Below, in pieces: positions 30,246 through 63,804 of a stretch of 64,000 nucleotides of DNA (the stretch's first letter is position 1; every line of letters begins with the position of its first letter). A program made the translations under genes and the position numbers. The notes beneath the pieces were generated by a model. The model was not told the origin of the DNA and searched no databases. It saw only the letters and a list, made by a program, of their open reading frames with translations. The stretch comes from an uncultured Spirochaetota bacterium (GTDB taxonomy: Bacteria; Spirochaetota; Spirochaetia; SZUA-6; Fen-1364): contig CAVTHO010000009.1 of NCBI GenBank assembly GCA_963734545.1, positions 128,001-192,000 of the forward strand, given 5' to 3'.

Positions 30246-30262
30246 GCCCGGCCCGGACCGGG

Positions 30263-31474
30263 TCAGTCGTCCGGATCGTCCCTCCCCTTGTACCTGATCA
30301 GGGTGAGGTGCATCTCGCTAGGAAACGCTTTGAGGCATTCCGCTCGATGAGGGAGCGCCTTGTCGTGCTGACCCGTGCGGGAGAATATGATTGCGAGATT
30401 GCAGTGCGCATCCGGATAGCGGGGCTCGAGGGACAGCGCGGTCTGGTAGGCATGGATCCCCTCGTCATGCTTGCCAATTGCCACCAGGCAATTGCCCAGA
30501 TTGTTCCACGCCTCCGCGAAACCACGATCGGCATCGATAGCCTGCAGGTAACGCTCCGCCGCGTCCGCCTCGCGTCCCAGCTCGTAGAGAACATTTCCGA
30601 GGTTGAAGAGCGTTTCCGGATCTGGTTCCGCTTCGAGGGCCCGGCGGTACGCATCCGCTGCCCGCTGAAGATCGCCGCGCTCCTCGGCCTCCACCGCCTC
30701 GGAAAACCACCGGCTGTGGCTCTGGTCGCCTTCCGGGAAGATGGACACGCGGGGAGATGTCATCTCCCGCTCCGTGTCGAAATCCATGAGCCTCTGGCCG
30801 CTGGGCTCGGCCCAGCCTCCATCCAGCAGCCGGATGCGCAGCCCGCTGTCATACGCCTCGAGACGCCCGGCAATCTGTTCTCCATCCGGCACCCACTGGG
30901 CGATCTCGGAGAGGCTCTGGCGCAGCAGCGCGGTGGAGACTCCGGATGCCGTCAGCCGGCCGAGGTTGCGCGCAAGCAGGATGTCCTTGAACTCGAACCA
31001 GGCCAGCCGATTGGCCACGCGCGCGGGAGGGAGCAGCCCTCGGCGCATCCAGCTGCGGACCACGGAAAGGGGCTCGTCCACGATGCGGCCCACCTGGGCC
31101 GCGGTGTACATTCGGGAGATATCGCTCAATTCTCCTTCGGCGCCGATCAAGGCCAGGAACTCGGCCTCGTCCACCAGCCGTATGGGTGCCCCCTGTTTCT
31201 TCAGCTCGCGGAAGCGCAGCATGTTGCGCGCAATACCCCCGTCCGGCGTGAAGTGCCCCGTTGCCTGGCCCGCTATGAGAAGCTCCGTGGTGGTCCCTGG
31301 CTCGCGCACGGGGCGGCCGCCGGCCCGGGTGATCCGCTGGACCGCCTCTGCCCTGTCCATGGAGACCAGACGACCGGTGAGCGCCACTTCCCTGCCGGCG
31401 AGCGATTCCTGAGGCGGCACTTTTTCCCTGCGCGGTACCCCGCGCATTTCTTCTTCCGTCACGACGTCAGGCAT
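30263..31474 (-). CDS. BRCT + MerR-like HTH + TPR protein
   Basis: LigA-like BRCT 'LAGREVALTGRLVSMDRAEAVQRITRAGG..IRLVDEAEFLALI'; HTH 'YTAAQVGRIV..VVRSWMRRGLL'; TPRs 'LFNLGNVLYELG', 'AWNNLGNCL', 'AHCNLA'. Confidence 0.82.
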   Translation of the reverse strand: MPDVVTEEEMRGVPRREKVPPQESLAGREVALTGRLVSMDRAEAVQRITRAGGRPVREPGTTTELLIAGQATGHFTPDGGIARNMLRFRELKKQGAPIRLVDEAEFLALIGAEGELSDISRMYTAAQVGRIVDEPLSVVRSWMRRGLLPPARVANRLAWFEFKDILLARNLGRLTASGVSTALLRQSLSEIAQWVPDGEQIAGRLEAYDSGLRIRLLDGGWAEPSGQRLMDFDTEREMTSPRVSIFPEGDQSHSRWFSEAVEAEERGDLQRAADAYRRALEAEPDPETLFNLGNVLYELGREADAAERYLQAIDADRGFAEAWNNLGNCLVAIGKHDEGIHAYQTALSLEPRYPDAHCNLAIIFSRTGQHDKALPHRAECLKAFPSEMHLTLIRYKGRDDPDD

Positions 31475-32363
31475 CCAGAAGCCCCTCGAACACGGGTGCG
31501 CGAAGCAATCCCGCTGAGGTGAGCTCAGCGAAGCTTACCGCGCAGAACAGGCCCGGCTCAACCCACCTCGCGCGTTCAGGGCAGGACACGAGCGGCGTGT
31601 CTCTCGGCCGCTGTCTCAGGAGCGTGTTGATCCTTTCGCGGACCCCTTCGGTGAAGCCGCCCCCCACTCTCCCGACATAGCGAAGCGCACCTTCCTGCTC
31701 TCCGGGAAGGCCGTTGCTCGCCACGAGCAGGCTCTGGAAGTCATCGCCATCCTTCTCGATATATCCGATGATGGCAACGTGGACCTGGAGCCGCCGCTTG
31801 AACTTCACCCAGGCGCCGTTGCGCTTTCCCGCCGCGTATGTGCTGGAGAGGCGCTTTGCCACGACTCCTTCAAGGCCCTGCTCGCAGGCCATCCGGTACA
31901 GCATCTTTCCTTTGGCGCGGACCCCTTCTGAAAGAATCACGCCCGGACACGGGGAATCCTTCATGATCTCTTCGAGGACCCCGCGCCTTTCGGAGAACGG
32001 CGCGTCGAGCAGGGAGCGGGACGCGCTGTAGAGGACGTCAAACACGACAAAGCTGACCGGCCAGGCGCCGGCACCGTGTCTGCTTTGAAGGACGAGCTCG
32101 AAATCAGGCTTGCCGTCGCGAAGAACAACCAGCTCCCCGTCCAGGACGAGGCCGTCGGGGAGCGCGGCCAGGCCGGCAAGGGACGGGTAGCGCGCGGTGA
32201 TATCCACCCCGTTGCGGCTCACAAGGCGATGCGCGCCGCGCTCCACCAGGGCCTGCGTGCGGATGCCGTCCCACTTGAACTCGAAGAAATGGGCGTCCGA
32301 ATCGAATGGCTGGCCGAGGACGGCGAGCATGGGGGGCACGAACCGGGGAAGCGCCTTATCCAA
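31467..32363 (-). CDS. Stand-alone ATP-dependent DNA ligase (LigD-ligase/LigC-like)
   Basis: Probable TTG start overlapping the Ku stop; intact 'EFKWDGIR', 'LDGELV', 'FDVL', 'EGVVAK', 'WVKFK' and OB domain 'GRVGGGF..LRAPVF'. Confidence 0.88.
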   Translation of the reverse strand: MDKALPRFVPPMLAVLGQPFDSDAHFFEFKWDGIRTQALVERGAHRLVSRNGVDITARYPSLAGLAALPDGLVLDGELVVLRDGKPDFELVLQSRHGAGAWPVSFVVFDVLYSASRSLLDAPFSERRGVLEEIMKDSPCPGVILSEGVRAKGKMLYRMACEQGLEGVVAKRLSSTYAAGKRNGAWVKFKRRLQVHVAIIGYIEKDGDDFQSLLVASNGLPGEQEGALRYVGRVGGGFTEGVRERINTLLRQRPRDTPLVSCPERARWVEPGLFCAVSFAELTSAGLLRAPVFEGLLDA

Positions 32364-33255
32364 CCTTCTTCTTCTTGGTCGTTGCGGCTTTGGCCGGCTT
32401 GGCGCTGGGAGCCTGCTTGAGCCCCGCCTTTGCCGCCTGCTTGTCCTCCACCGTTGCCTGCGCGCCGCTGGCTGCCTGGGCCTCTGCCACGCTGCGCTTG
32501 AGGGCCTCCATGAGATTGATGATCTTCGGCTCCTCGGGGTCACGGATCTGGACGACTTCCTTCCCCTCGATCTTCATCTGGATCAGCTTTGTCAGCTTTT
32601 CCTTGTACACGTCGTGATACTTTGAAAAGTCGAAGCTCTTGATCATCGAGGCTTTGATGAGCGTGTCCGCCAGGGACATTTCCGCATCGGACACTTCCGT
32701 TTCAGTGATCTCGTCCTTGAACGCGGAGGCGGCCTTCACCTCGTCCTTCCGGTTCAGAACGGTCATGGCCAGCACCCCGTCTATCGGCCGCAGCATGACC
32801 ACCTGCTCTTTCTGGGAGATGACCACCTCGGCCATGGCGCACACCTGGTTCGCCAGCATGCCCTTCAGCAGAAGGTTGTACGGTTTCTGGCCCACGGGCC
32901 CGTCCGGCGTCAGGAAGTAGGTCCGGCCGCCCAGGTAGATCGTGCTGAGGTCCTCCGGCTTGATGAACCCGTCTATCCGGATGGACTTGTCGCTCTCGGT
33001 GCGCAGCTTGTCGATCTCATCCTCGTCGATGATGACATACTGCCCTTTCGAGTACTCGTAGCCCTTGACGATCTCCTCGCTGCTGACTTCACCAACCTCA
33101 GGGGCGAACTTCTTGTACTGGATCCGCGTGTGGGTTTTTGCGTGAAGCTGGTGGAGCGTGATGTCGCTCCCGGTCGACGTGGACGTATATGCCTTGACTG
33201 GCACTGAAACCAGGCTGAGCTTCAAGAACCCCTTCCAACTGGCATGGGCTGCCAT
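32356..33255 (-). CDS. ku: Ku DNA end-binding protein
   Basis: 'WKGFLKLSLVSVPVKAY', 'IVKGYEY', 'INLMEALKRS', basic Lys/Ala-rich tail. Confidence 0.95.
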   Translation of the reverse strand: MAAHASWKGFLKLSLVSVPVKAYTSTSTGSDITLHQLHAKTHTRIQYKKFAPEVGEVSSEEIVKGYEYSKGQYVIIDEDEIDKLRTESDKSIRIDGFIKPEDLSTIYLGGRTYFLTPDGPVGQKPYNLLLKGMLANQVCAMAEVVISQKEQVVMLRPIDGVLAMTVLNRKDEVKAASAFKDEITETEVSDAEMSLADTLIKASMIKSFDFSKYHDVYKEKLTKLIQMKIEGKEVVQIRDPEEPKIINLMEALKRSVAEAQAASGAQATVEDKQAAKAGLKQAPSAKPAKAATTKKKKVG

Positions 33256-39649: not shown

Positions 39650-40679
39650 ATGAAGGCCCTGGTGAAAAAAGGCCCGGGAAAGCGGCTGGAGATGCAGCAG
39701 GTCCCGATGCCCGTGGTCGGGGGCAACGATCTGTTGATCCGGGTTACCAAGGCCGCCATCTGCGGCACCGACCTGCACATCTGGAACTGGGACGAGTGGT
39801 CGCAGCGCACCCTTCGGCCTCCTCTGATCACGGGACACGAGTTCGTGGGACGGATCGTCGACATGGGCGCCAAGCGTCAGCGGCTACGAGATCGGCGAGC
39901 GCGTCTCCGGCGAAGGCCACATCGTCTGCGGCGTCTGCAGGAGCTGCCGCGCGGGGCGCCGGCACCTCTGCACCAACACGGTCGGCATCGGCGTGAACCG
40001 TGACGGCTGCTTTGCGGAGTACCTCTCCCTGCCCGCGCCGAACGCCTGGCACGTGCACCCGGGGATCCCCTCGGAGATCGCCTGCTTCCTCGACCCGCTG
40101 GGAAACGCCACGCACTCTGCCCTCTCCTTCGACCTGGTGGGAGAGGACGTTCTGATCACGGGAGCGGGGCCCATCGGCATCATGGCGGCGGCCATCTGCC
40201 GGCACTGCGGCGCACAGCGGATCGTCGTCACGGACGTCAACGACTACCGCCTGGGGCTTGCTGCCAGGATGGGGGCCACCATGACGGTGAACGTGTCCCG
40301 GACCTCCATCGAGGATGCGCGGAAGGAGCTGGGGATCATCGGGTTCGACATCGGCCTGGAGATGTCGGGAAACGGCGCGGCGTTCGAGTCGATGCTGGAG
40401 AACATGTACCACGGCGGGCGTATCGCGCTGCTGGGCATCCTTCCCAACTCGACGGGAATCCGCTGGGACCAGGTGATCTTCAAGGGCCTGGTCATCAAGG
40501 GGATCTACGGCAGAGAGATCTTCGAGACCTGGTACAAGATGCAGACGATGCTGCAGAGCGGGCTCGACGTGAGCCCGGTGCTCACACACCGGTTTCCCTT
40601 CGAGCAGTTCGAGAAAGGGTTCGAGGTCATGCAGTCCGGGCAGCTGCGGCAAGGTGATCCTCGAGATCGCGGAGGATGA
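39650..40679 (+). CDS. tdh: L-threonine 3-dehydrogenase (frameshifted)
   Basis: '[14 protein letters not shown]', 'GHEFVG', 'DPLGNATH', 'GAGPIG', '[14 protein letters not shown]'; directly upstream of kbl. Confidence 0.93.
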
Positions 40680-41904
40680 AGAAGATGCTTGACCATGACG
40701 CGCGGAGGGAGCTGGGTGAGCGGATTGCCGAAATCCGTTCCGCGGGGACGTACAAGGAGGAGCGGGTCATCCAGACGCCGCAGGGGGTGCATCTTCGCGT
40801 GCGGCCGGGAAACGAGGTGCTGAACTTCTGCGCCAACAATTATCTCGGGCTCGCCTCCCACCCGCGGGTGCTCGCTGCCGCGCACGCGGCCTCGACCGCT
40901 GGGGATACGGCATGGCGTCGGTGCGTTTCATCTGCGGCACCCAGGAGGTGCACGCGGAGCTGGAGAAGCGCATGGCGGCGTTCCTGGGCACGGAGGACGC
41001 GCTGCTGTACTCTTCCTGCTTCGACGCCAACGGCGGCGTCTTCGAGCCTCTCCTGGACAAGGACTGCGCGCTCATTACCGACCAGCTCAATCACGCTTCC
41101 CTCATAGATGGCGCGCGGCTGTGCAAGGCAAATCGTTTCATCTACGCCCACGCGGACATGAGCGATCTGGCGGAGAAGCTCGGGGAGGCGTCAACCGCGC
41201 GGCTCAGGATGATCGTCACGGACGGGGTTTTCTCCATGGACGGAGACCTGGCGAACCTCCCCGAGATCTGCGCGCTTGCCGAGAAGCACAGGGCAATGGT
41301 CATGGTGGACGACAGCCACGCCACGGGATTCATCGGCAGGAAAGGCAGGGGCACGGCGGAGCACTTCGGCGTGACCGGCCGCGTGGACATTATCTCCACG
41401 ACGTTCGGCAAGGCACTCGGGGGCGCCACGGGAGGATGCCTCGCAGGCAGGAAGGAGATCGTCGAGCTCCTTCGCCAGAGGAGCAGGCCATACCTGTTCT
41501 CCAACTCGCTGGCGCCGGTGGTGGCGGGAGCGAGCATCGCCGTCATCGAGATGCTCAGTGAAAGCACCGAGCTGCGCGACAGGCTCGAAGAGAACACGGT
41601 CTTTTTCCGGCAGGCCATCACAGACGCGGGATTCGACGTGAAGCCCGGCATACACCCCATCGTTCCCATCATGCTCTACGAGGAGAGCCGGGCCGTGGAG
41701 ATGGCGCGCCGGCTCCTGGATGAGGGCATCTACGTCATCGGCTTCTCCTACCCCGTGGTGCCGAAAGGCCAGGCCCGGATTCGCGTGCAGGTCTCCGCCG
41801 TGCACACTCGAAACGACCTGGAAAAGGCCGTGTCGGCATTTGCCCGGGTGGGAAGGACCATCGGCCTGCTGAAACAGGATGCGCGGAAAAACTTGACCGT
41901 GTGA
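40676..41904 (+). CDS. kbl: Glycine C-acetyltransferase / 2-amino-3-ketobutyrate CoA ligase (frameshifted)
   Basis: '[10 protein letters not shown]', '[10 protein letters not shown]', 'SCFDANGG', 'DDSHATG', 'FGKALGG', '[11 protein letters not shown]'. Confidence 0.95.
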
Positions 41905-45097: not shown

Positions 45098-46727
45098 ATG
45101 GTGCACAGCATCGCCATCGCCGATGTCCCCTCCACCACACCCCTGTTCGCCGATTTCTGGAAAGGAAAGGAAACCTTTCGCGGCCTTCTTCCCCGGCATT
45201 TCATGGATCCGCGCGCCTTCTCGGAGCAGGCCGGCCTGCTTGCCCGCGCCCGCTACGACCGCGGCACGCTGTGCACGGTGCTCCGCGAGCAGAACGAAAG
45301 GTTCGGCGCGGGCGCACAGACGCTGCGGTCCATCGACGCGCTGGAGGGGCCCGGCTCCATGGTCGTGATCGGAGGTCAGCAGGCCGGGTTGTTCGGCGGC
45401 CCCCTCTACACGGTGCACAAGGCCCTGACGATCATCGTGCTCGCCCGCAGGATGGCGAAACAACTGCGACCGGCCGGTGATCCCCGTGTTCTGGATCGCC
45501 TCCGAGGACAGCGATCTCGCGGAGGTGAATCACACCTTCGTTGTCGACAGGGACGGTCGGCTGCGGGAGCTTCGTCTGCACGAAGCGGTGGAAGCGAAGC
45601 TTCCGGTCTCCCGTGTGCGCCTCGGGGAGGAGATCGGGCCGCTCATGAACGAGCTGGCCGCCGCGCTTCCCGAGGCAGATGGCGCGGAGAATGTACTCGC
45701 CGACCTGCGGGCGGCGTACGCCCCCGGCCGCACCTATCCGCAGGCCTTCGGCTCCTGGATGACGAATCTCTTCGGCGAGCAGGGACTGGTGCTCGTCGAT
45801 CCTTCCGATGTCCGGCTGAAACGGATGGCGCATTCGCTTTTCGAGCGCGAGATCAGGGAGAACAGCCCGGTGAGCGCCGCGGTCATCGCGCAGACCCGCC
45901 GGATGATCGAGGCGGGATACGCGCCGCAGATCGAGCTGCGGGAAGGGTTCCTCACTCTTTTCCACCAGGACCCTGCCCGGCAGGCCATCGCGCTCCGCAG
46001 GAACGGATTCGAGCTGAAGTCGACCGGGAAGACCTTTACAGCGGAGGAGCTCGCCGGTCTCCTGGAGCGCAGCCCGGAGAGCTTCACTCCCAACGCGGTG
46101 CTGCGTCCCCTGTACCAGGACACGCTCTTTCCCACGCTGGCTGCGGTCCTCGGTCCATCGGAGATCGCCTACTTCTCACAGCTCACGCTGGCCTATGAGC
46201 GGATGGGCATCCCGATGCCGATCGTTTTTCCCCGCTCCTCCCTCACCCTGGTGGAACCGAAAATGGAGAAGCTCATGGCCAGGCTCGGCGTGGGCCTGAG
46301 GGACCTCCTCGTGCGCGGGGAACGAATAATCGACGACATATTGAAGAGAGACATTCCCGAGTCCCTCACCACGCGGGTCATGGAGGGCAGGGCCTCTGTG
46401 ACGGCAGCCTGGAAAACGATCATCGGCGAGATCGACACGCTTGATCCCACGCTGCATCGGACGGCGGAACTGGGATCAGGCAGGGCCCTGCGCCAGTTCG
46501 ATTTCATGGAAAAGAAGATCGCGCAGGCAGCCCGGAAAAAGAACGGGATCCTCCGCGGGCAGGTGGAGAGGCTCGTCGCCGCCCTGGCGCCCAGGAACGG
46601 CCTGCAGGAGAGGACGCTCACGGCGCTCCCCTTTCTTGCGCGCTACGGAAAACAGATTCTCACCCAGGCAGCGGAAGGCATCGATCCGTTCGCCCCCGAG
46701 CACAGGGGGCTGGTGGTGGATCAATGA
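45098..46727 (+). CDS. bshC: Bacillithiol biosynthesis cysteine-adding enzyme (frameshift near 45470)
   Basis: 'GGQQAGLFGGPLYTVHKA', 'PVFWIASEDSDLAEVNH', 'PNAVLRPLYQD', 'GPSEIAY', 'LQER'. Confidence 0.9.
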
Positions 46728-47446
46728 CGCTGGACATACTGGCATTCGGCGCGCATCCGGATGACGTGGAGCTGGCCGCGAGCGGTACCCTGATCAAGGC
46801 GGGACGCGGCGGCGCGAAAACGGGCGTGATCACCCTCACCCGCGGAGAGATGGGCACGCGCGGCACTCCCGCCGCGCGGGCGGCTGAGTTCGAGGCGGCA
46901 GGTGACGCGATGGGTCTCACTCATCGGGAAATGCTCTCCCTGCCGGACGGCAGGCTGGCCCCGGACCAGGGGGCAAAGGAAGCCGTGGTTCGGGAGATCA
47001 GGGAGCATCGGCCGCGCATCGTCCTTCTGCCCTATTGGGAGGACAGGCATCCCGATCACGGCGCCGCTTCACGCATCATCCAGGAGGCGGCATTCCTGGC
47101 GGGACTTCGCAAGCTGGAAACCGGCCAGGAGCCGCACCGCCCGTCCGAGCTTGTCTACTACATGGCCAGCTGGGAGTTCGAGCCGAGCTTTATCGTCGAT
47201 ATCAGCGACGTGATCGAGGACAAGATCAAGGCGATCCAGGCATACGGCACGCAAGTGCACAATCCGGGCTACGCGGGGAACGAGCCGCCCACCTTCATCT
47301 CCAGCCAGCACTTCCAGGAGCTGCTCATGACCCGCATGGCCCACTACGGACACCTCATCGGAAAGAAGTACGGGGAGCCCTTCCGCATCAAGGGTCTGAT
47401 CGAGGTGAAAGACCTGCTGGAGTCTTTCGGAAGCCGGACGTTTTAG
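46724..47446 (+). CDS. bshB1: Bacillithiol biosynthesis deacetylase (PIG-L family)
   Basis: 'GAHPDDVEL', 'LTRGEMGTRGT', 'DRHPDH'; coupled to bshC. Confidence 0.88.
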   Translation: MTLDILAFGAHPDDVELAASGTLIKAGRGGAKTGVITLTRGEMGTRGTPAARAAEFEAAGDAMGLTHREMLSLPDGRLAPDQGAKEAVVREIREHRPRIVLLPYWEDRHPDHGAASRIIQEAAFLAGLRKLETGQEPHRPSELVYYMASWEFEPSFIVDISDVIEDKIKAIQAYGTQVHNPGYAGNEPPTFISSQHFQELLMTRMAHYGHLIGKKYGEPFRIKGLIEVKDLLESFGSRTF

Positions 47447-47733
47447 CTCTCCCCTTGCGATGCAGGGGATTGCCTGGTAATGCGCCCCTCTTAATCGTGG
47501 ATAACAGTCACCGTGGTGTAGCGAGTCGCCGAGCCAAAGCTATGACTTACCGCACACTCGCTCTGAGTAATGAAGTGTACTTTCTTCACTTCGGCGAGAA
47601 GCTGATTCAATGCGGTTTCAAGTGCCACGGAACGGCCTCCTCCGGGCTTCGGAGATCAAGCAGCTTCTCATAGTAGAACCACGCGCAGGGAATGCAAGGC
47701 CCAATCGGGTGGATGTACAACTCGGCTCGCCGC

Positions 47734-50634
47734 CTAATGGCCCGTTGGCCCTGAAGGCTTATCTGCGCCTTGCTTCAGAATGATGGTCGCACCCCCTGGC
47801 ACACCCGACGTCTGCTTTAATTCGATGGAAGCGCCGTTTTCTAGAATCTTGATTACCCTCTGCTCCTGGACCACGCGGAACTCAACCGACCGGCTTTCTC
47901 CTCCCGTGAGCGCGAGATCGAAAGACTCGGGCTCAATTCTATGGTAGCTCGGAAGCTGTCCCCCTGCGATACGAAGCACATAGTTTCCCGGTCGCACATC
48001 CTGGAAGCTGAAATCCCCATTGGGGCTCGTCAGCTTTCGCCGAATCTCGGCACCGTTGGCTATTTCGATGATCACGTTTCCGAGGCCCCCGAGTCGTGCG
48101 CGATTGGTTTCCCCTGATTCTGCGCCCGATCCTTTCTGATCCAACGGAAGGTAGGCGCCGGCCTCGTCCGGGAACCCGTACACGCCGACGTTCCCCGTGA
48201 CCGAGCAACTCTTGATCATCCCTATGGCGAGGGAAATCGTCGACCCGCTCGGTGCCGTCACCGCCAGAGGCATCGGTTCCACTGGCACCATACCGGGTCT
48301 TACGGTCGCCAAATCCACGTGGACGTACTTGGTTCCCGATTGGGGAAGGTAGAACGTGAACCGTCCCTTCGCATCGCTGAGCGCCGCAAGGCCGTCCAGA
48401 CGGAGCAGGACCCCTGGCATGGGCTCATCAGTCGAGGCGTTGTACACGCGACCCGTTACAGTTGCCGTATCCGGCTTTCGGCTGATCGGCAGATCGAATG
48501 GCACCCCATAAGTGAGTTGCAGAGAATAATAGGGCGTCCAGGACTCCGGATCATAGGTGAGTCCGACATCAAGCTGCGCCGTGAGAGTAGTGCCCCATGA
48601 GAAGGCAGTCGTGAGTTTGGCTCCGACGGACGCCAGAAGCTCGGTGAAACCCGCCTGGCTGAAAATGTAGCTGTTGCCGGCCTTTGCTTCCAGCTGGGTT
48701 TTCGCTTTCGAGTATCGAGCGTCCACCTGCCAGCCCGCAACATGTGAAGCATTCCCGTTTGAATCCAGCCTGCCGTTGTAGAGGAGCGAAGCGGCATACC
48801 ATGCCGTATCGGCTGGTTGAAACTCGAAAGAGAGGTTGTGCTGTTGCTCCAGGGACGAAACCCCATTTGCTTTATCGAACTCGAAGCCTGCCGAGGACGC
48901 AAGGCCGATGGCGAACGGCTTGAGGGGCTGGCGCAGCGAGAGTCGGAAGATGTTTTGCCAGGAGTCATATCTCGGCGCGGGAAGCCTGTCTATGCGTCGC
49001 CAGTTTTCCCAGTCCAGCCTGAGCCGCATGCCCCACCGTGGTATTTCTCCCTCCGCGCCCAGAGAGATCTCCATGGTCCGATCTGCCGACAGTTGCGCAG
49101 GATCAAGGAGCAGGTTGGCATCAGCCATCGAGAAGCCGCCGTGCAGGGTGAGGAAGGGGGGCAGGACGCGCACGTGGACGAGCGTACGCAGGGATTGTGT
49201 GTCGCTGAACGTTCCCTGAAAACCAGGCCATGCCCTGACGAATCGCGCGGTCCAGGAAACAGGTTCGAGATTGCCCTGGGACCATGCAAAGACCGCCGGG
49301 CGGAGGCTGCCGGAAGTATCGTCCTGGATCGCCGTGTCAAGCTGAAACTGGAGGTTCTCCGTCGGATTGTATTGCTGCATCAGGCCGAAGGAAATGCTGT
49401 CCGTAATCGGCGAGAAGGCGCTCAGCCCCGCGCGGTACACCACGTCGTCCCATTGCCCCGATCGGGGAATCGTGAAGTCAGCGGTCCCGCCTATCGCCTG
49501 CGCCCCCTGCGGCGACCAGACGTCCTTGTAGTACAGGCCGCCGAAACGAAACGGGGAGAGGTTCACCATGCCCCGGATTCCCCGGCCGAACACGTCCTCA
49601 GCGAGCAGCGGAGAGATCGCGTAGGGGAGATCCCCCAGCCCCAGCTCGCCGTAGCGACTCTCGTACTGGAAGCTGTAGCGGTCCGTCGGATTGAAGAGCG
49701 GATCAAAAGTGGTGTCGACCCGTTTGCGAAGCTCCAGATCGACTCTGTGCTCGCCGGCCTCGTCTATGGTGCCATGAGCTTTCACGGATTCCTCGAGACC
49801 CGCGGTCAGCTTCTGGTCATAGCCGCTTAAAATTGTCGTCTCGGTGAAAAACGGCACCGCGTGCGAGAGGATCCTGGCGTCGACCGAAAGTGGGACGACC
49901 TCGACAGAGCTTGCGGCAATTGCCAGCGGTGCGCCTGGTCCCGTGGCTCCAGCTTCCTCAGCCGGATGTAGGCGCACGGTGACCTGGAGGGGGTGGAGCA
50001 CAGACGTGACCAGCAGCGGGTCCGTACGCACCGCGATGCTGAACACTTTTACATCACCGGCAGGCACGATCGTCCCCGCCGCGCCCCCAAGACCGCTGAT
50101 CTTGAACGGGAACAGGGACCCGCTCGTCACGTCAACCTCGACCTCAACGTCCGTGTTCCCGGTGTTGGAAATAACAAAGGATGTCGTGTATTCCTTGCCG
50201 GCAATCACGAAAGAGGGGCGTTCCAGGAGCTTCAAATCGAGGGCAACCTCGGGCAGGACACGTACTTTGAGGTCGCACCCCGCGCTGAGCGTCGGGTCGT
50301 CGAGGTCTTTCACCCGGTACGCAACGACGTACTCTGCGGCGGCGGCACGAGACGGAACGAGGAAAGAGACCACGTGAAGGTCGGTCGCCGAAGGCGCCAG
50401 GACGAACGGTCCCTCCTGCGTGAGCGCCTTCCAGCCGGGAGGAAGCGAAGGCTCGAGAATCAGCGTGCGGGCCTGCGGGCCGCTGTTTGATACGGACAGC
50501 GCGAAGGTGACTGCCTGCCGGGTATGAACCTCGAGAAGATCCACCCCTGTCGTCCTCACGGTGACCGGCAGATTCTCCGCACCGGCCGTGGTTGCGACTG
50601 CCAGCAGGAGAATCGGGATAAGGCGGCGGAGCAC
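47734..50634 (-). CDS. Large exported protein: N-terminal Ig-like domains, central beta-barrel-like region, C-terminal carboxypeptidase-regulatory-like domains (usher-like)
   Basis: Probable GTG start 50634 with signal peptide VLRRLIPILLLAVATTAGA; 'VSNSG..LPPGW', 'ISNTGN'; 'ELGLGDLPYAISPLL..GRG'; 'VTGRVYN..DAKGRF'; 'NGDFSFQDVRPGNY'. Confidence 0.6.
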   Translation of the reverse strand: MLRRLIPILLLAVATTAGAENLPVTVRTTGVDLLEVHTRQAVTFALSVSNSGPQARTLILEPSLPPGWKALTQEGPFVLAPSATDLHVVSFLVPSRAAAAEYVVAYRVKDLDDPTLSAGCDLKVRVLPEVALDLKLLERPSFVIAGKEYTTSFVISNTGNTDVEVEVDVTSGSLFPFKISGLGGAAGTIVPAGDVKVFSIAVRTDPLLVTSVLHPLQVTVRLHPAEEAGATGPGAPLAIAASSVEVVPLSVDARILSHAVPFFTETTILSGYDQKLTAGLEESVKAHGTIDEAGEHRVDLELRKRVDTTFDPLFNPTDRYSFQYESRYGELGLGDLPYAISPLLAEDVFGRGIRGMVNLSPFRFGGLYYKDVWSPQGAQAIGGTADFTIPRSGQWDDVVYRAGLSAFSPITDSISFGLMQQYNPTENLQFQLDTAIQDDTSGSLRPAVFAWSQGNLEPVSWTARFVRAWPGFQGTFSDTQSLRTLVHVRVLPPFLTLHGGFSMADANLLLDPAQLSADRTMEISLGAEGEIPRWGMRLRLDWENWRRIDRLPAPRYDSWQNIFRLSLRQPLKPFAIGLASSAGFEFDKANGVSSLEQQHNLSFEFQPADTAWYAASLLYNGRLDSNGNASHVAGWQVDARYSKAKTQLEAKAGNSYIFSQAGFTELLASVGAKLTTAFSWGTTLTAQLDVGLTYDPESWTPYYSLQLTYGVPFDLPISRKPDTATVTGRVYNASTDEPMPGVLLRLDGLAALSDAKGRFTFYLPQSGTKYVHVDLATVRPGMVPVEPMPLAVTAPSGSTISLAIGMIKSCSVTGNVGVYGFPDEAGAYLPLDQKGSGAESGETNRARLGGLGNVIIEIANGAEIRRKLTSPNGDFSFQDVRPGNYVLRIAGGQLPSYHRIEPESFDLALTGGESRSVEFRVVQEQRVIKILENGASIELKQTSGVPGGATIILKQGADKPSGPTGH

Positions 50635-50635
50635 C

Positions 50636-51460
50636 TTACTGCTTGAGCACGAGGGTAACGTTGGCGCCGAATACATCCTCGTCCCCGCAATCGACGACGA
50701 TCAGGGCTTTGTAGGAAGGATCCTGGACACCGATCAGATCCACCGTGAACCGCACCGAGGTCCCCGGATACATCCTCTGTTTCCCGCCGTCGAACTTGCC
50801 GACTTTGGTCCCCCTGGAATCGTAGAGCTCGGCCCACAGAGTGCCGCGCAGCCATCGCTCACCCGTGTTTTGCACGTCGACGAGGAGTAGTCTCTTTTCT
50901 TTTTCGCTGACCAGACTGATCTGGCTGAACTTCAAGAGCCGGGTGCCGGTGGCACCTATGTGGGTCACGATCTGGACCGCGTAGCGCAGCACCTGGCTCA
51001 CCCCCACGCCGGTGTTCTTCGGCCCGGGCTGGCTGGACTCCGCGGACCCTTCCGGGACGGGCTCCACCATGACAACGCTCCAATAGGTCCCGGCCAGCGT
51101 TGCATCATTCGGCACCTGGACGCTGAAGTGCAGCGACACGGTCTCATTCGGCGGGATCGTAACCTGCTGGGGAGACAGCGTCATCCAGCGGGCATTGGAC
51201 CTCGGGAGCGCGCCGGGATCTCCGTAGAGCACCTTCCCATCCGCATAAAAGAAATAGTCGGTCTGGTAGGTCTTGATCTCCTGCGGCGTTTTCTCGGGAT
51301 TCTTTACATCGATGGAGCCTTCATAGGTGCGTCCCGGCGCCACCTCGTACTCACGAGTGAGCGATCCTGTAACGATGATCCCCGCGTAACACGCAAGCGG
51401 CGCAGCGAGCAAACCAACCATGACGGCAACGATGCGAACGTTCATATTCCTCCGGCTCAT
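50636..51460 (-). CDS. Periplasmic pilus-chaperone-like protein (two Ig-like domains)
   Basis: Signal peptide; 'WMTLSPQQVTIPPNET', 'GTYWSVVMVEP', 'RYAVQIVTH', 'VQNTGE', 'MYPGTS'. Confidence 0.65.
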   Translation of the reverse strand: MSRRNMNVRIVAVMVGLLAAPLACYAGIIVTGSLTREYEVAPGRTYEGSIDVKNPEKTPQEIKTYQTDYFFYADGKVLYGDPGALPRSNARWMTLSPQQVTIPPNETVSLHFSVQVPNDATLAGTYWSVVMVEPVPEGSAESSQPGPKNTGVGVSQVLRYAVQIVTHIGATGTRLLKFSQISLVSEKEKRLLLVDVQNTGERWLRGTLWAELYDSRGTKVGKFDGGKQRMYPGTSVRFTVDLIGVQDPSYKALIVVDCGDEDVFGANVTLVLKQ

Positions 51461-51463
51461 CTG

Positions 51464-52009
51464 TCAGAACTCCGTCACGGTGTACGTGACGCTCGTTACA
51501 TCGCTGGGCGTCACCAGATTGGGAGCAGACACGCCACGAATCTGAAGCTGGCATCGGATGTTTCTCACTGCTGTTCGGGTGTTGCAGCGGAAAAGCTCCG
51601 TGGGGACGTTCGTGACCTGCTGATAGACATTCAAGGGTCCGACGAGGTTGCCCGCGGGGGTGCCATTGTTGGTACGCCGGATCCACAATTGCAGGTTGGC
51701 GCCCCAGGTGGCGGTATAGGTCCTGCTGACAGTGACTACCCACCCCGTCATCCCGCCCGTGAATGGAGCGTTCACTCGCAAAACAGTCTGGTTGGCCGCA
51801 CTGGTGTAGGTGGTTGTGGTAAAATCTCTTCCCGCTGCCGGAACCGGTGAGGGCGCGGCCGGGATGGTGACCGTCCAACCGCCGGCGCCGGTCGAGATCA
51901 CCAAGGCCAGCGGGACGGCGGGCTCTGCGACAACAAGCAAAAACAGCAGATTGAGAACTAGGCTCCCCGCTCGAACCGGCTGTGGAAGGGATGAAAAAAA
52001 ATCGCGCAT
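51464..52009 (-). CDS. Secreted pilin-like protein (minor subunit candidate)
   Basis: Hydrophobic leader; Thr/Val-rich beta protein; C-terminal alternating strand 'SVTYTVTEF'. Confidence 0.55.
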   Translation of the reverse strand: MRDFFSSLPQPVRAGSLVLNLLFLLVVAEPAVPLALVISTGAGGWTVTIPAAPSPVPAAGRDFTTTTYTSAANQTVLRVNAPFTGGMTGWVVTVSRTYTATWGANLQLWIRRTNNGTPAGNLVGPLNVYQQVTNVPTELFRCNTRTAVRNIRCQLQIRGVSAPNLVTPSDVTSVTYTVTEF

Positions 52010-52012
52010 GCG

Positions 52013-52068
52013 AAAAAAAACGGAGAGGGCCGGATCGAGGCATTACGCCTCTCCACTAGCCCTTCCGT
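52013..52068 (-). terminator. Intrinsic terminator-like hairpin after the first pilin-like gene
   Basis: Minus strand ACGGAAGGGC...GCCCTCTCCG followed by T8. Confidence 0.55.
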
Positions 52069-52084
52069 CCTTTCAGTGGTCGGC

Positions 52085-52624
52085 CTAGCTGGCGTCGGTC
52101 AATGTGAAGGTCACGGTGACCAGGTGGTTGTCGCCCACAGCGAGGTTCGCGACAGTATCCACTTGCAAGGTGTACGTCAGCTGCGCTCCATTGGCAGCCT
52201 GGCCGGTGACGCAGCTCGGAATCGCCGTGACGATGTTCAGCGCAGCCGCGCCAATCGTGACAGCTGCACCCGCAGTCCCGCAACCGCCGGTGACCGAGGT
52301 CGCCTGCACGTGCAGAGAGGTGCCGGCAGGCGCGGCATCAGCGCCACCCCACTGCACGGAAATGTTCCTGTTGGTTCCGGTGGCATTTACCGTGGTATAC
52401 CACAGATATTTGCTGTTGTCCGTTTGGCCGACAGGGGCCAGTCCTCCTGCTGCCGGAGCCTGCACGCTCAAAGTGACCGTGGCAACGTTGTTAAGGCTCA
52501 TCATGACGATTTCAGGCACATTCAGCTGAACCGAATGGGCTGCCGAGCTGGTTGCGGCAAACGCGCCGGCACCTACAAACAGACAAAGAGCGGCAATTAA
52601 TAGAGTTTTTCTAATGAAGTTCAT
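52085..52624 (-). CDS. Secreted pilin-like protein (major subunit candidate)
   Basis: RBS AAGGAGG; signal peptide ending AFA; 'HSVQLNVPEI', 'YLWYT', Cys pair GGCG..PSCVTG; C-terminal 'VTVTFTLTDAS'. Confidence 0.65.
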   Translation of the reverse strand: MNFIRKTLLIAALCLFVGAGAFAATSSAAHSVQLNVPEIVMMSLNNVATVTLSVQAPAAGGLAPVGQTDNSKYLWYTTVNATGTNRNISVQWGGADAAPAGTSLHVQATSVTGGCGTAGAAVTIGAAALNIVTAIPSCVTGQAANGAQLTYTLQVDTVANLAVGDNHLVTVTFTLTDAS

Positions 52625-52740
52625 TTTTCGTCCTCCTTGCTTCTCAGAACCGGAACGCGTGTTCGCTCACCCGGCCTCTACAAGGAGTATAGTCTCCGCT
52701 TTCGCGTAATTCCAGAAAAAGCCCTGCTATTTTCGCCTAT

Positions 52741-53046
52741 CTAGCTGTTCGTCGCCACCATGTCATAGTCGGTGAACACGACATCCCCGCCGACCAGCTC
52801 GGGAGAGTAGACCGATTCGAATCGTTTCACGGCCGCCGATTCACCGTGGGCCCTGTGCGCAGCCTCGTTGTCGAATATGAAGAAGTGCACGAAGCGTGTC
52901 GCATCTTCCTTTTGCTGCCACGCCACGTACAAGCGCGTGCCGGGTTCGTTGGCTTTCACGAAGCGGACAAACTCCTCGATTGACCTCTTCACCCTATCTA
53001 CTGCTCGGGCGTTCACCCGGTATTCGGCGATTTGATAGATTGCCAT
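52741..53046 (-). CDS. Antibiotic biosynthesis monooxygenase (ABM) family protein
   Basis: 101 aa; 'NEPGTRLY', 'FVHFFIFDNEAAHRAH'. Confidence 0.8.
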   Translation of the reverse strand: MAIYQIAEYRVNARAVDRVKRSIEEFVRFVKANEPGTRLYVAWQQKEDATRFVHFFIFDNEAAHRAHGESAAVKRFESVYSPELVGGDVVFTDYDMVATNS

Positions 53047-53067
53047 GAGGCCCTCCTATGGGCCTCA

Positions 53068-53097
53068 AATATATGCAAGAGAATGCTTGCATGTCAA
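53068..53097 (-). promoter_or_regulatory. Promoter with palindromic operator upstream of the ABM gene
   Basis: TTGACA-N18-TATATT; ATGCAAG-N6-CTTGCAT palindrome (53073-53092). Confidence 0.6.
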
Positions 53098-53165
53098 ATT
53101 CGGCGAAAGCCGCGTGACGACGAACGGTGGACCTCCCCCCGGATCAGCCTGCGCGCTCCACTCCG

Positions 53166-54523
53166 CTACAGAGCGGCACCGTTTGAGGCGATCACCCTCT
53201 GATACCAGTTTGCGCTCTTTTTCCACGTGCGCGCCTGCGTATGAAAGTCGACGTGGGTAATCCCGAACCGTTTGCTGAACCCGTACGCCCATTCGAAGTT
53301 GTCCATCAGCGTCCAGAGAAAGTAGCCTTCCAGCCTCACCCCGTCATTGATGGCCCGGTGGGCCTCGGAAAGGTGGGTGGATATGTAGTCGATCCTGTCG
53401 TCGTCCTGCACCTGCCCATCCACGACCAGATGGTCAGGAAAGGCAGCTCCGTTCTCCGTGATGACAATGACCGGGTCGTCATACTCCTTCTTCACCTGCA
53501 TGAGGATATCGTACAGCCCTTCCGGAAACACCTCCCAGCCCATCTCCGTCCGCTCGCACTCTTTTCGGAGCGCATGTTGGTACCCGAGGAAGCCTCCCGC
53601 GTCGCTCGCGTACACCCTTTCGGGGAAGTAGTAGTTCAGGCCGATGAAATCAACGGGGTTCGTTTTCAACAGCTCGAAGTCCTGCCGCTCCGTGTGAGGA
53701 GCCACTTTGTTCCTGGTATACAGGCTCAAGATGTCGTCTGGATACGAGCCCTTCAGGACAGGGTCCAGAAACCAGCGATTGGTCTTGCCGTCCGCGAGCC
53801 GGGCCGCCTCGATGTCCGACACACCGTCGGTGAATGGATAGACCGGGTGAACGTCCAGGGCGATGCCGATCCGGTGCTTGCCGGGACTCAGCTGCCGATA
53901 GGCCTGTACGCCGAGGGAATGCGCGTGCAGGAGGATGTGCGACGCCTGCACCGCCGCGCCGAAGTCCTTCAGCCCCGGCGCATGGATTCCCATCTGCATG
54001 ACCGGCGAACGAGGACACCTGGGGCTCGTTGAGCGTCATCCAGATTTTCACCCGGTCACCGAGCCGCATGAAGACCGATGCGGCATAGTCGGCAAACCAG
54101 CTTGCCGTGTCCCGATTGGTCCAGCCTCCCCTGTCCTGAAGTGACTGCGGCAAGTCCCAGTGATACAGGGTGGCGGCAGGTTCGATACGCGCCTCCAGCA
54201 GCGCGTCCACGAGGGTCTCGTAGAAATCCAATCCTCTTGGATTGTGCCTTCCGTTTCCCATCGGAAACACGCGCGGCCAGGAAATGGAGAACCGGTAGGA
54301 CGCCGAGCCCGAGGTCCCGCATGTTCTCGATGTCGTCCCGCCACCTGTGGTAGTGATCGCAGGCAAGGACCCCGGTCTCCCCGGTCTCGATGGCGCCGGG
54401 CACCTGGCAGAAGCGGTCCCAGATCGACTCGCCCTTTCCATTCTCCCGTGCGGCGCCCTCGATCTGGTAGGCGGCAGTGGCTGCTCCCCAGAGAAACCCC
54501 GTCGGAAAACCGCTTGAAGGCAT
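53166..54523 (-). CDS. GH1 beta-glucosidase (frameshifted)
   Basis: '[14 protein letters not shown]', 'CDHYHRW', 'YRFSISWPR', 'TLNEP', 'ITENG', 'DNFEWAYG'. Confidence 0.92.
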
Positions 54524-54662
54524 GGATTCATTATAGAAACGGCAGTCCGAGGTGTCAAACAACACTCCGGATTGCGGTGGACCATGCATATCATTAAACC
54601 GGTTTGACCGGGAGAGCATCCTTCCGTATCTTAGATTCAAAAGATATTCTTCCGGAGCAAAC

Positions 54663-57228
<2,566 letters not shown>

Positions 57229-57242
<14 letters not shown>

Positions 57243-57549
57243 GCGGCCGGTCCAGCCTCCGGACCGCCGCTGCTGCCTCGAGGGGAACCTGGAAGACCTT
57301 GTGCGGCGATGCTCCGCCGAGCTTCAACACCACGCTGCCCGGCGGAACGCCGAGGGCTTTTGCCAGGACCCTCGCGACCTCTCCATTCGCCCTGCCCTTT
57401 TCGGCAACCGCCCGGACCGAGACGTGGAGCTCCGCGCCGCGGACGCCGAGAACAGAGTCCTGCCGCGCCCCCGGCTTCGCCTTGACCTTCAGGGTCACGA
57501 AATCGGCGTGAATTGAATAGAAGCCTCCCGGATCAGCCAACGCGGTCAC
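57229..57549 (-). CDS. DUF167 (YggU) family protein
   Basis: 'LKVKAKPGA', '[10 protein letters not shown]', 'GGASPHK'. Confidence 0.8.
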
Positions 57550-61914: not shown

Positions 61915-63707
61915 ATGACCGGCAACGAGCTGAGGCGCATTTACATCGATTTTTTCAAGGAAAAGGGCCACGCGGAGATCTCCGGAAAGTCCCTCATCCC
62001 GGAGAACGACCCCACTGTTCTCTTCACCACGGCGGGGATGCACCCCCTGGTGCCCTATATCCTGGGAGAGCCGCATCCCGCGGGAAAGAGGCTGGTGGAC
62101 TGCCAGAAGTGCATGCGCACGGACGACATCGACGAGGTGGGCGACTCCGCGCACCTCACCTTCTTCGAAATGCTGGGCAACTGGTCCCTGGGGGACTACT
62201 TCAAGAAGGACGCCATCGCGTTCAGCTACGAGTTCCTCACGTCGCCCCGGTGGCTGGGCTTCTCCGCGGATTCGCTTTCCGTGACCGTCTTCGCGGGAGA
62301 CGGCGAGGTGCCGCCGGATCACGAGGCGGCGGAGAACTGGAAATCCATCGGCATTCCGGAGGAACGCATCCATTTCCTGCCGCCGCAAGGACAACTGGTG
62401 GGGACCGGCGGGTCAGACCGGACCGTGCGGCCCGGACACGGAGATGTTCATCGACACGCGGCAGTCCCCGCCTGCGGCCCCGACTGCAAGCCGGGGTGCC
62501 ATTGCGGAAAGTACATCGAGGTCTGGAACGACGTGTTCATGCAGTACAACAAGACCGCGGACGGAAAGTACCTGCCCCTCGCGCAGAAGACCGTGGACAC
62601 GGGCATGGGGGTCGAGCGCACCCTCGCCATGATCCAGGGAAAGAAGACCGTCTTCGAGACCGAGCTGTTCTGGCCGATCATCGAGCATCTTCAAGAAATC
62701 ACGGGCAGGACGTACGGCGCCGAGCCGGCGGTCGACACGTCCTTCCGCATCATCGCGGATCACCTGCGCTCCTCCGTGTTCATCATCGGGGACGACCGGG
62801 GCGTGAAACCCTCCAATCTCGGCCAGGGCTACATCCTGCGCCGGCTCATCCGCCGCACCATCCGTCACGGCCGCAAGCTCGGCCTGGAGGGCAGCTTCCT
62901 CGGGGCGCTGGCCGCTCGATGTCATTGCCATCTATGAGGAGTTCTATCCCGAGCTGCGCGAGCGCGCGGAGATGATCACGACGGAGCTGGGGCTGGAGGA
63001 AGAGCGGTTCTCCGAGACTCTGCAGAAGGGCGAGCAAGAGTTCGAAAAGCTGCTGCCCAATCTCATGAAGAACCCGCAGAAGATCATCCCGGGCCGCGTG
63101 GCGTTCCGCCTCTACGACACCTATGGGTTTCCCATCGAGATCACGGAGGAGCTGGCGCGCGAGCACGGCATGGCCGTGGACAGGAAGGGATTCGACGAGG
63201 CCTTCGAGAAGCACCAGGAGCTGTCCAAGGCGGGCGCGGAGAAGATCTTCAAGGGCGGCCTGGCCGACCATTCGGAGATGACTACCCGGCTGCACACCGC
63301 CACCCATCTCCTCCACCAGGCGCTTCGCATGGTGCTGGGCACGCACGTGGCGCAGAAGGGCTCCAACATCACCGTCGAGCGGCTTCGATTCGACTTCTCC
63401 CACCCCCAGCCCATGACGGAGGAGGAAGTCCGCAAGGTCGAGGCGATCGTGAACGAGCAGATTGCCCGCAAGCTGCCCGTGACCATGGAGGTCATGACCA
63501 TCGAGGAGGCGCGCGCCGCCTCGCGCCATCGCGCTGTTCGGGGAGAAGTACGCGGAAAAAGTGAAGGTCTACACGATCGGGGACTTCTCCAAGGAAGTCT
63601 GCGGAGGACCGCACGTGGAAAACACGGGCGTTCTGGGCAGGTTCGTCATCCAGAAAGAGCAGTCATCCTCGTCCGGCGTCAGGAGAATCCGCGCGGTGCT
63701 GGAATAG
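61915..63707 (+). CDS. alaS: Alanine-tRNA ligase, short form without C-Ala domain (frameshifted)
   Basis: '[10 protein letters not shown]', '[12 protein letters not shown]', 'DTGMGVER', 'LYDTYGFP', 'HTATHLL', 'EVCGGPHV', ends '[10 protein letters not shown]'. Confidence 0.95.
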
Positions 63708-63710
63708 CCT

Positions 63711-63728
63711 TCCGCGGTACTCCGCGGA
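63711..63728. terminator. Hairpin between convergent alaS and TPR gene
   Basis: TCCGCGG-tact-CCGCGGA just after the alaS stop; no U-tract. Confidence 0.35.
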
Positions 63729-63744
63729 GTTGGGCCGAAGGCCG

Positions 63745-63804
63745 CGCCTACAGGGCTCGCTAAAGTGCATCCCTGCACTCGCTCGCCCTCGCCATCCCTG
63801 GCTA
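63745..63804. repeat. 60-bp double-hairpin dispersed repeat, copy 2 (abuts TAG stop of TPR-like gene)
   Basis: cgcctac..gtgcatccctgcac tcgctcgccctc gccatccctggc ta; homologous to 8134-8193. Confidence 0.65.

Follow-up and report, generated by a model that had tools for sequence, protein, structure and literature searches.

Do four adjacent genes of an uncultured member of the Spirochaetota encode a pathway for the assembly of pili and, if so, how is that pathway related to those already known? The genes lie on the minus strand of a 64,000 nt stretch of contig CAVTHO010000009.1 (assembly GCA_963734545.1, positions 128,001 to 192,000), the whole of which is referred to here as the window. An initial annotation, made from the sequence alone, had described them as a divergent chaperone-usher-like system comprising two small beta proteins, a two-domain pilus chaperone and a large outer-membrane protein. 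Our analysis confirmed that this four-gene exported module is real, and partly supported the interpretation that had been placed upon it. We consider it probable that the operon specifies an uncharacterised donor-strand-exchange pilus pathway of diderm bacteria, employing a soluble chaperone of the WxLIP type and an outer-membrane pore that is not of the PapC kind. The parts of the operon fit one mechanism, and it is therefore read as a donor-strand-exchange pilus system of diderm bacteria; the module is read as working like a chaperone-usher system but standing outside that sequence family.

The four co-directional open reading frames (ORFs) were all found as first described. S1 (52085-52624, 179 aa) is the proposed polymerising fibre subunit, and S2 (51464-52009, 181 aa), its paralogue without an N-terminal extension, is the proposed tip or initiator subunit. 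M (50636-51460, 274 aa) is predicted to be a soluble periplasmic two-domain chaperone-like protein of the WxLIP type. B (47734-50676), the proposed outer-membrane pore or assembly platform, is 980 aa long, where roughly 970 had been estimated. The genes are closely packed, with gaps of 75 nt between S1 and S2 and 3 nt between S2 and M, and an overlap of 41 nt between M and B; a strong ribosome-binding site precedes S1. All four proteins open with a hydrophobic stretch of signal-like character (its best 12-aa hydropathy, 2.4-3.0, falls within the first 46 residues), and no later membrane-helix-like segment was detected in any of the four, save one marginal Ala/Val-rich stretch in S1. The short strings quoted in the initial annotation are all present, VTVTFTLTD at the C-terminus of S1, SVTYTVTEF at that of S2, SAAHSVQLNV near the N-terminus of S1, and SPQQVTIPP, YWSVVMVE and NTG in M. 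The small proteins are rich in Thr, Val and Ala as claimed (T+V+A+G+S make up 58% of S1 and 49% of S2). GC content at third codon positions is 0.67-0.77 in the four genes and 0.64-0.89 in most long ORFs of the window, which contains a single such module. The cluster is more than a chance arrangement: homologues of all four proteins are numerous, and their gene order is kept across phyla.

The conservation of gene order was assessed by a pattern scan with the M family, in which each species was represented by one genome. The scan matched 523 stretches, 443 of which encode an M relative, and the locus statistics given here rest on 79 loci from the best-scoring 80 of those 443 matches. The order S1(n)-S2-M-B recurs in these 79 loci, which span more than 12 phyla. 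The survey of synteny that the initial annotation had suggested found the genes together elsewhere, with M followed immediately by B on the same strand in 73 of the 79 loci. A homologue of B was identified in 77 loci by direct phmmer search; with iterated hidden Markov models (HMMs), the S1 family was found in 69 loci (151 ORFs) and S2 in 59, where its gene as a rule immediately precedes M. In 27 loci the genes stand exactly in the order S1-S2-M-B, and in 11 in the order S1-S1-S2-M-B. Of the six exceptions to M-B adjacency, an S1 gene stands between M and B in L022, L045 and L061, B lies upstream in L021, M falls at a contig end in L047, and in L031 M stands alone beside an unrelated gene.

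By record label, the loci belong to Spirochaetota (7), Planctomycetota (8), Deltaproteobacteria, Desulfobacterota or Syntrophia (13), Bacteriovoracaceae (3), Gammaproteobacteria (3; Thiocapsa marina, Thiohalocapsa marina and Candidatus Thiodiazotropha), Ignavibacteria (10), Bacteroidota (3), Zixibacteria (5), Armatimonadota (4), Clostridia (2) and single other groups (7), with 14 unclassified. The module had been taken to be confined to non-proteobacterial hosts, but it is also present in Chromatiaceae, Thiodiazotropha and 'Deltaproteobacteria'. Cultured carriers include Deinococcus deserti VCD115 (on plasmid 2), Thiocapsa marina 5811 and Thiohalocapsa marina DSM 19078. The M profile matched 5,796 representative clusters at E<=1e-3, 1,887 at 1e-10 and 732 at 1e-30, among 1.84 billion. 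In a quick tree, M of the window fell inside a clade of all seven Spirochaetota rows (SH-aLRT 94, inner node 97), which makes a spirochaete the probable host. M and B distances were correlated across 34 loci (Mantel r 0.875, 0 of 999 permutations as high), and the M and B genes are therefore inherited as a block, a result that does not show contact between the proteins.

A metagenome-assembled genome (MAG) of the Bacteriovoracaceae (L036, 1576-13083) carries sixteen S1-family paralogues around one M-B pair, an extreme case of subunit expansion, and a Treponemataceae MAG (L001, 1372-9922) carries two complete modules in tandem, the first of which has the form S1-M-B without S2 and a longer B of 1277 aa. 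Two MAGs labelled Clostridia (L044 and L046) encode the full module, including the barrel protein B, and may represent either diderm Bacillota or mis-binned contigs. The order varies on a plasmid of Deinococcus psychrotolerans (L084, 3904-9650), where genes annotated throughout as hypothetical encode, in turn, a 291-aa protein, an M-like protein (99.5% by hhalign), a 175-aa protein that escaped recognition as S1 and a B-like protein (96.3%). It seems that the subunits diverge more rapidly than either chaperone or pore.

The claimed resemblance of M to two-domain pilus chaperones was borne out by its predicted structure. The AlphaFold2 (AF2) model (predicted local distance difference test, pLDDT, 92.7; predicted template modelling score, pTM, 0.83) consists of two beta-sandwich domains, with strands spanning residues 29-168 and 176-271, in a fold of two immunoglobulin (Ig) domains. 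In a Foldseek search of the PDB, the first match was the WxLIP of Enterococcus faecium bound to a long WxL protein (9i25_C, E 1.3e-14, template modelling (TM) scores 0.55/0.59, 267 columns), and apo WxLIP (9i1y) took ranks 2 and 3; over these three ranks E ran from 1.3e-14 to 2.5e-13 and TM from 0.54 to 0.59, with 264-267 columns. Next came the chaperones of chaperone-usher systems, CfaA (2.5e-10), CsuC (1.6e-9), Caf1M (1.9e-9), YadV, FimC (2.2e-9) and PapD (5.3e-8), with TM scores of 0.37-0.48 by query length. The closest solved relatives of M thus belong to two groups, both of which act by donor-strand complementation.

Comparisons of sequence families point to the same relatives. M itself has only sub-threshold Pfam matches, to WxLIP_PGBD (PF06030, 21.2 bits against a cut-off of 27.3) and to fn3_5, with no match to PF11797. 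In the M family (51 members, E<=0.01), fn3_5 was matched in 26 members, WxLIP_PGBD in 22 (below threshold) and WxLIP_HBD (PF11797) in 2. Profile alignment by hhalign joined the M family to an actinobacterial 'DUF916 domain-containing' family across both domains (98.3%, E 1.8e-14, 208 columns), to the hypothetical protein of D. psychrotolerans (99.5%, E 1.4e-22, 237 columns), to the 'molecular chaperone' of a Sphingopyxis operon encoding a DUF4402 protein (94.4%, E 8.8e-8, 184 columns) and to a Paenibacillus hypothetical protein (89%, E 2.2e-6, 214 columns); the Ig domains of B, used as a control, gave 7.9% (E 0.0044, 70 columns). We conclude that M is structurally and evolutionarily related to WxLIP. 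PDB sequence searches with the four proteins and with four profiles returned nothing except a match for the transthyretin-like domain of B.

The last strand of the first domain of M, QVLRYAVQIVTHIG (residues 156-169; 50954-50995, minus strand), contains an invariant R159 and Q163 and aligns with the equally conserved VSRVGIRIYLSVG of the DUF916-like family. In the model a strand at 160-168 follows a loop of lower confidence. By analogy with the enterococcal WxLIP ElrE, residues 156-169 are a candidate for the strand that would be donated to the subunits.

The two small proteins had been treated as equivalent, but S2 is without the N-terminal extension that S1 carries, and it is therefore read as a tip or initiator subunit. 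To judge from sequence, S1 and S2 are distant paralogues (hhalign of the two families 93.1%, E 3.2e-7, 124 columns), and their alignment starts at the mature N-terminus of S2 but at approximately residue 42 of S1. The S1 signal peptide (residues 1-23; 52556-52624, minus strand), read from the sequence and helical in the model, ends in AFA, and position 23 is Ala in 86% of 119 family members. It is followed by the extension ATSSAAHSVQLNVP (residues 24-37; 52514-52555, minus strand), delimited by its length relative to S2 and by the family profile, which is the proposed donor strand. When length was measured from a crude signal-cleavage prediction to the equivalent conserved glycine, the median was 35 residues in the S1 family (n=91 passing filters, interquartile range (IQR) 34-40) versus 21 in S2 (n=45, IQR 20-24), and S1 therefore has approximately 14 extra residues. 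The profile of the extension over 119 sequences, T-D-T-A-T-Q-T-V(95%)-T-[I/L/M 93%]-T-[F/V/I 99%]-S-E, is that of a predicted strand with one hydrophobic face. The segment SAAHSVQLNV, which the initial annotation had put forward as a possible donor strand, does lie inside this conserved 14-residue extension with its alternating hydrophobic residues; its donor function we infer.

The presence of the extension is linked to the position of the gene. The extension was scored as absent where the first matched position of the mature-S1 HMM was >=12, with 195 of 209 ORFs alignable. By this measure, 51 of 62 loci have a subunit without the extension immediately upstream of M, whereas among the remaining subunits the extension is missing from 9 of 133 (odds ratio 64, Fisher p 1.2e-26). 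In the loci of Ignavibacteria and Bacteroidota that are without an HMM-defined S2, the paralogue adjoining M also starts directly with the body strand. The form without this strand is encoded once, adjoining the chaperone, a placing much like that of tip subunits in chaperone-usher pili. S1 paralogues are often several per locus, and number up to 16. Both families end 2-4 residues past a conserved strand, TVTxTLTD in S1 and YSTTVxYTVxD in S2; in S1 of the window this C-terminal strand is NHLVTVTFTLTD (52094-52129, minus strand), and the protein ends 2 residues on.

The AF2 model of S1 (pLDDT 91.6, pTM 0.77) shows a seven-strand beta fold with its C-terminal strand at residues 171-175. In this monomer, residues 18-38 do not form a strand and the extension is not paired; pLDDT is 76 for the block 21-30 and 94 for 31-40. 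Among the 41 Foldseek matches listed for this model, 22 are chaperone-usher subunits at E 0.02-0.23 (CfaB, Caf1, CupB6, FimA, FimG, FimH, FimI and SafA) and a further 8 are subunits from other fibres that assemble themselves (TLP-1, cannulae/CanA, a Sulfolobus filament, Ena3A and TasA), resemblances of the predicted fold that are suggestive only. Several hairpins were evident from covariation among 260 S1-family sequences (effective number 166). A search with the S1 profile retrieved 162 proteins, none of which has a Pfam domain among the 120 listed; the relatives listed are named 'hypothetical protein' save for one Joint Genome Institute (JGI) label, 'Tfp pilus assembly protein PilW'. A match of S1 to the NCBIfam model 'Stx1a B subunit' (E 0.14) covered the signal peptide only, and was dismissed as chance.

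For the large protein B, three regions can be distinguished, all encoded on the minus strand. The N-terminal Ig-like region, of approximately two domains (residues 34-265; 49882-50577), is defined by NPCBM_assoc and FixG_C matches, found in 30 and 24 of 35 B-family members, respectively. The Ig-like N-terminal domains claimed in the initial annotation are therefore supported in the family, while the protein of the window itself has just a weak FixG_C match at residues 168-237. The C-terminal region, a transthyretin-like pair (CarboxypepD_reg; residues 739-813 and approximately 864-948; 47833-48462), agrees with the earlier claim outright: PF13620 was matched at E 2.3e-10 in two stretches, the first (739-813) scoring 41.1 bits against a cut-off of 32.3. 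CarboxypepD_reg is present in 35 of 35 aligned family members, and the B profile matched the transthyretin-like domain of NOMO2 in the PDB (E 4.7e-10). The central region (residues 266-737; 48466-49881) is the proposed beta-barrel. Regions aligned to these residues were cut out of the 35 members. Porin_4 matched 6 of these, 3 above the cut-off (46.3, 35.5 and 28.7 bits versus 27), OMP_b-brl matched 5, all below the cut-off, and DUF481, DUF2490 and DUF5777 gave one weak match each. A crude periodicity scan marked approximately 25 amphipathic beta segments in the central region of B. The barrel-like core described at first is thus backed by porin and outer-membrane barrel matches in some homologues, but not in B of the window. 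From these domain matches we propose that B is an outer-membrane barrel serving as pore or assembly platform.

Taken as one mechanism, these parts would work as follows. All four proteins would be exported via Sec. M would capture unfolded S1 and S2 and complete their beta-sandwich with a strand of its own, probably residues 156-169. S2, having no extension, would enter first and come to sit at the distal tip, and S1 subunits would then be added one by one. B would be an outer-membrane barrel with a periplasmic Ig-like N-terminus and a transthyretin-like C-terminus, which, like an usher, would receive the complexes of chaperone and subunit and let the fibre out across the outer membrane as it grows. 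The binding of subunits by M, strand exchange, fibre formation, and the pore role and topology of B are the steps that we infer.

The nearest known system is the WxL pilus, exemplified by elrABCDE of Enterococcus faecalis, in which ElrE serves the pilins ElrC and ElrD. According to a preprint of 17 October 2026 (10.64898/2026.10.17.759780), the WxLIP ElrE completes WxL pilin folds by donor-strand complementation, ElrD polymerises by donor-strand exchange via an N-terminal strand of ~15 residues, and the WxL pilus system is confined to Bacillota and a small actinobacterial satellite. An earlier paper defined WxLIP and predicted strand insertion (PMC10599100). WxLIP is the closest structural match of M (E 1.3e-14), and M matches the related DUF916-annotated family across both domains (98.3%). 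By comparison with the preprint, WxL pili and the module also have in common subunits of ~160-230 aa, an amphipathic strand ~14-15 residues long at the N-terminus and a gene for the chaperone next to those for the pilins.

The module also differs from WxL pili. A C-terminal membrane helix is present in 96.7% of WxLIPs, as stated in the preprint (10.64898/2026.10.17.759780), whereas M is without one: a membrane-helix-like segment was found in 0 of 51 M-family members versus 35 of 35 actinobacterial DUF916-like proteins. M also scores below the Pfam cut-offs for PF06030 and PF11797. The WxLIP screen described in the preprint needed both modules above their gathering thresholds, and M would therefore not have been found by it. 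The WxL domain (PF13731) is absent from S1 and S2 and from the 25 families shown, of 28 matched, for 35 S1-family members, and hhalign of S1 against an Arthrobacter WxL-like neighbour gave 1%. The host is diderm, and among the genes of the module is one for a large barrel protein. The four genes showed no LPxTG anchor, although no search aimed at an LPxTG motif or sortase was made. The module thus shares a chaperone lineage with WxL pili but departs from them in three defining respects, namely the Pfam thresholds, the membrane anchor and the WxL pilins.

The same three-part layout, with proteins of similar size, is found in the uncharacterised DUF4402 operon on plasmid pMC4 of Sphingopyxis indica (L082, 3032-7295), which encodes a DUF4402 protein of 160 aa, a 'molecular chaperone' of 274 aa and a carboxypeptidase regulatory-like protein of 895 aa. 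Its chaperone is the one that aligns with the M family at 94.4% (E 8.8e-8), and the C-terminal part of its large protein is weakly similar to B (43%). The subunits differ, in that hhalign of S1 against the DUF4402 protein gave 0.9%, and PF14352 is absent from S1 and from the 25 families shown, of 28 matched, for 35 S1-family members. We accordingly rejected a homology of S1 with DUF4402 or with WxL domains (hhalign 0.9% and 1%). A full-text literature search found no paper that mentions the term DUF4402.

Chaperone-assisted donor-strand exchange has been described for the chaperone-usher pili of Proteobacteria, whose tip adhesins lack an N-terminal extension. Could the module be a very divergent but true member of this class, from its archaic or alternative branch, in which M derives from a PapD-like and B from a PapC-like protein beyond the reach of sequence methods? 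The likeness to such systems (classical Fim, Pap and Caf1, alternative CFA/I, archaic Csu) extends to the set of parts, namely one or more subunits, a two-Ig-domain chaperone and an adjoining gene for a large outer-membrane protein, and to one subunit type, S2, without an extension, as in tip adhesins. By structure M matches CfaA, CsuC, Caf1M, FimC and PapD (E 2.5e-10 to 5e-8), chaperone-usher subunits make up most of the weak structure matches of S1 (22 of the 41 listed), and the order of parts in B (periplasmic domains, barrel, two C-terminal beta-sandwich domains) is usher-like. A model of ElrE matches the same kind of chaperones, CsuC, CfaA, Caf1M and EcpB, by Foldseek, as the preprint reports (10.64898/2026.10.17.759780), a likeness that also speaks for shared chaperone-usher ancestry. 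We nevertheless regard this origin as quite improbable. In E-value, WxLIP stands 4 orders of magnitude ahead of any chaperone-usher chaperone, and no component has sequence or profile similarity to its supposed counterpart: in hhalign M scored 0.3% with FimC (E 0.18, 12 columns), B scored 0.8% with FimD and S1 scored 3.9% with FimA, in an alignment confined to the signal peptide. No PapD_N, Usher or fimbrial Pfam match was obtained in any family member, PapD_N (PF00345) being absent from M and the 51 M-family members. M and the M-like proteins have no NCBIfam fimbrial-chaperone match, and M has no NCBIfam match at all, whereas the FimC control matched 20 fimbrial-chaperone models. M is therefore PapD-like in fold but, as a sequence family, lies outside PapD, membership of which was rejected; among solved structures it comes closest to the chaperones that serve Gram-positive WxL pili, the WxLIP (DUF916/DUF3324) proteins. 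B is without sequence similarity to ushers and has no Usher match in 35 family members. Where its barrel resembles anything it resembles general porins, and NPCBM_assoc-like and CarboxypepD_reg domains take the place of the usher N- and C-terminal domains. A kinship with type V (FimA/Mfa-like) pili can be set aside as highly improbable. It is raised by the M homologue on D. deserti plasmid 2, which carries the NCBI name 'FimB/Mfa2 family fimbrial subunit' and reaches the Pfam Mfa2 threshold over 58 residues (21.7 bits versus 21.2). Type V pilins are lipoprotein precursors, and a lipobox-like motif was found in 0 of 119 S1-family and 2 of 30 S2-family proteins, the former count being the ground for rejection; M of the window has no Mfa2 match, and its fold matches chaperones rather than Mfa2.

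More searching is the explanation that no fibre is made, and that the module exports or displays monomeric proteins. B would then be a porin-like outer-membrane protein, M would act in the periplasm as a holdase or binding protein, and the small proteins S1 and S2 would remain monomeric beta-sandwiches of the surface or periplasm, such as adhesins or ligand binders. Several results weigh against a fibre and sit comfortably with this alternative. The S1 model has no Foldseek match at E<=1e-3 (best 0.019, TM 0.3-0.42), and 11 of the 41 matches listed are unrelated beta-sandwiches. S1 and S2 fall in no known pilin family: no Pfam or NCBIfam family and no PDB sequence relative was found for either, nor any sequence similarity to FimA, DUF4402 or a WxL-like pilin. 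The barrel matches of B are to general porins and not to ushers, its central region in the window has no barrel-family match, and Usher PF00577, a 24-strand barrel with plug, is absent by sequence from the 35 family members. M resembles non-chaperone tandem-Ig proteins as well (the Vpr fibril, CEP192 and RbmA), with E-values like those of chaperone-usher chaperones but lower TM scores (0.27-0.34). Other observations limit the pilus reading itself. The antiparallel covariation between extension and C-terminal strand is a hint, at approximately the 98th percentile of all ladders, which is not significant. The subunit adjoining M carries the extension in 11 of 62 loci, and D. deserti has an S1-type subunit only; and the synteny is that of the best-scoring 79 loci. 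Against the monomeric alternative, M finds its best structural matches in the pilus chaperones of two systems independent of each other, the tie between extension and gene position (51 of 62 versus 9 of 133) has no obvious reason if the subunits act as monomers, and multiple S1 paralogues at a locus, up to 16, are typical of fibre subunits. We therefore think the monomeric alternative unlikely, and prefer to read the module as a donor-strand-exchange pilus system.

The module is flanked by unrelated housekeeping genes: those for BshB and BshC lie to one side, and to the other those for an ABM-domain protein, a GH1 glucosidase and ClpB. Its own four genes look intact, having homologue-like lengths and aligning end to end with their homologues, a point of some weight, since frameshifts split many housekeeping genes in other parts of the window. 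The genes for PFOR, Tdh/Kbl, BshC, GH1 beta-glucosidase, ClpB and AlaS are distributed over 2-3 reading frames or truncated, as seen from the ORFs at 8617-11459, 39993-41904, 45098-46727, 53166-54736, 54552-57511 and 61915-63763, which suggests an indel-rich assembly rather than true pseudogenes. The ABM (antibiotic biosynthesis monooxygenase) gene, of 101 aa (52741-53046, minus strand), lies just upstream of S1 and has a sigma-70-like promoter match of its own (11/12) at 53097-53068. The window also holds a non-homologous end-joining cluster at 28077-33255, with Ku and pieces of a LigD-type ligase, polymerase and phosphoesterase.

With regard to regulation, a sigma-54-dependent NtrC-type response regulator adjoins the module in 25 of the 79 loci (for example L029, 2975-4339), hinting at two-component and sigma-54 control in many lineages. 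No such regulator was found in the window, and none of the 38 loose sigma-54 matches in the window (63 expected by chance) lies upstream of S1. Scans for sigma-70 promoters and terminators were at chance level. No Rfam family was found in 47000-53400, no meaningful DNA repeat in the region and no tRNA gene in the window.

None of the four components has a functional annotation. Homologues are entered as 'hypothetical protein', 'carboxypeptidase regulatory-like domain-containing protein' or 'molecular chaperone', twice as 'P pilus assembly chaperone PapD' (by JGI) and once as 'FimB/Mfa2 family fimbrial subunit'. Full-text searches found no literature description of the diderm module; subscription journals and preprint supplements were outside these searches, and a prior description is possible.

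The module places a WxLIP-type chaperone in the diderm periplasm, beside a large outer-membrane barrel protein. We speculate, tentatively and with slightly more doubt than conviction, that it represents a third, phylum-spanning pilus pathway of the chaperone-plus-outer-membrane-pore kind, a diderm counterpart of the Gram-positive WxL pilus in which a soluble chaperone of the WxLIP type is combined with pilins of a new family and with a pore that derives from porins and has no kinship with PapC ushers. If this is true, fibres built by donor-strand exchange would extend to Spirochaetota, Planctomycetota, Ignavibacteriota, Zixibacteria, Armatimonadota, Deinococcota and others, and chaperone-guided donor-strand exchange would be older and wider than either the proteobacterial chaperone-usher systems or the WxL systems of Bacillota suggest. 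Should the fibres indeed be made, the module would name a surface appendage for many poorly studied phyla, provide an evolutionary link between the Gram-positive and Gram-negative pathways, and represent an outer-membrane secretion pore of a new type.

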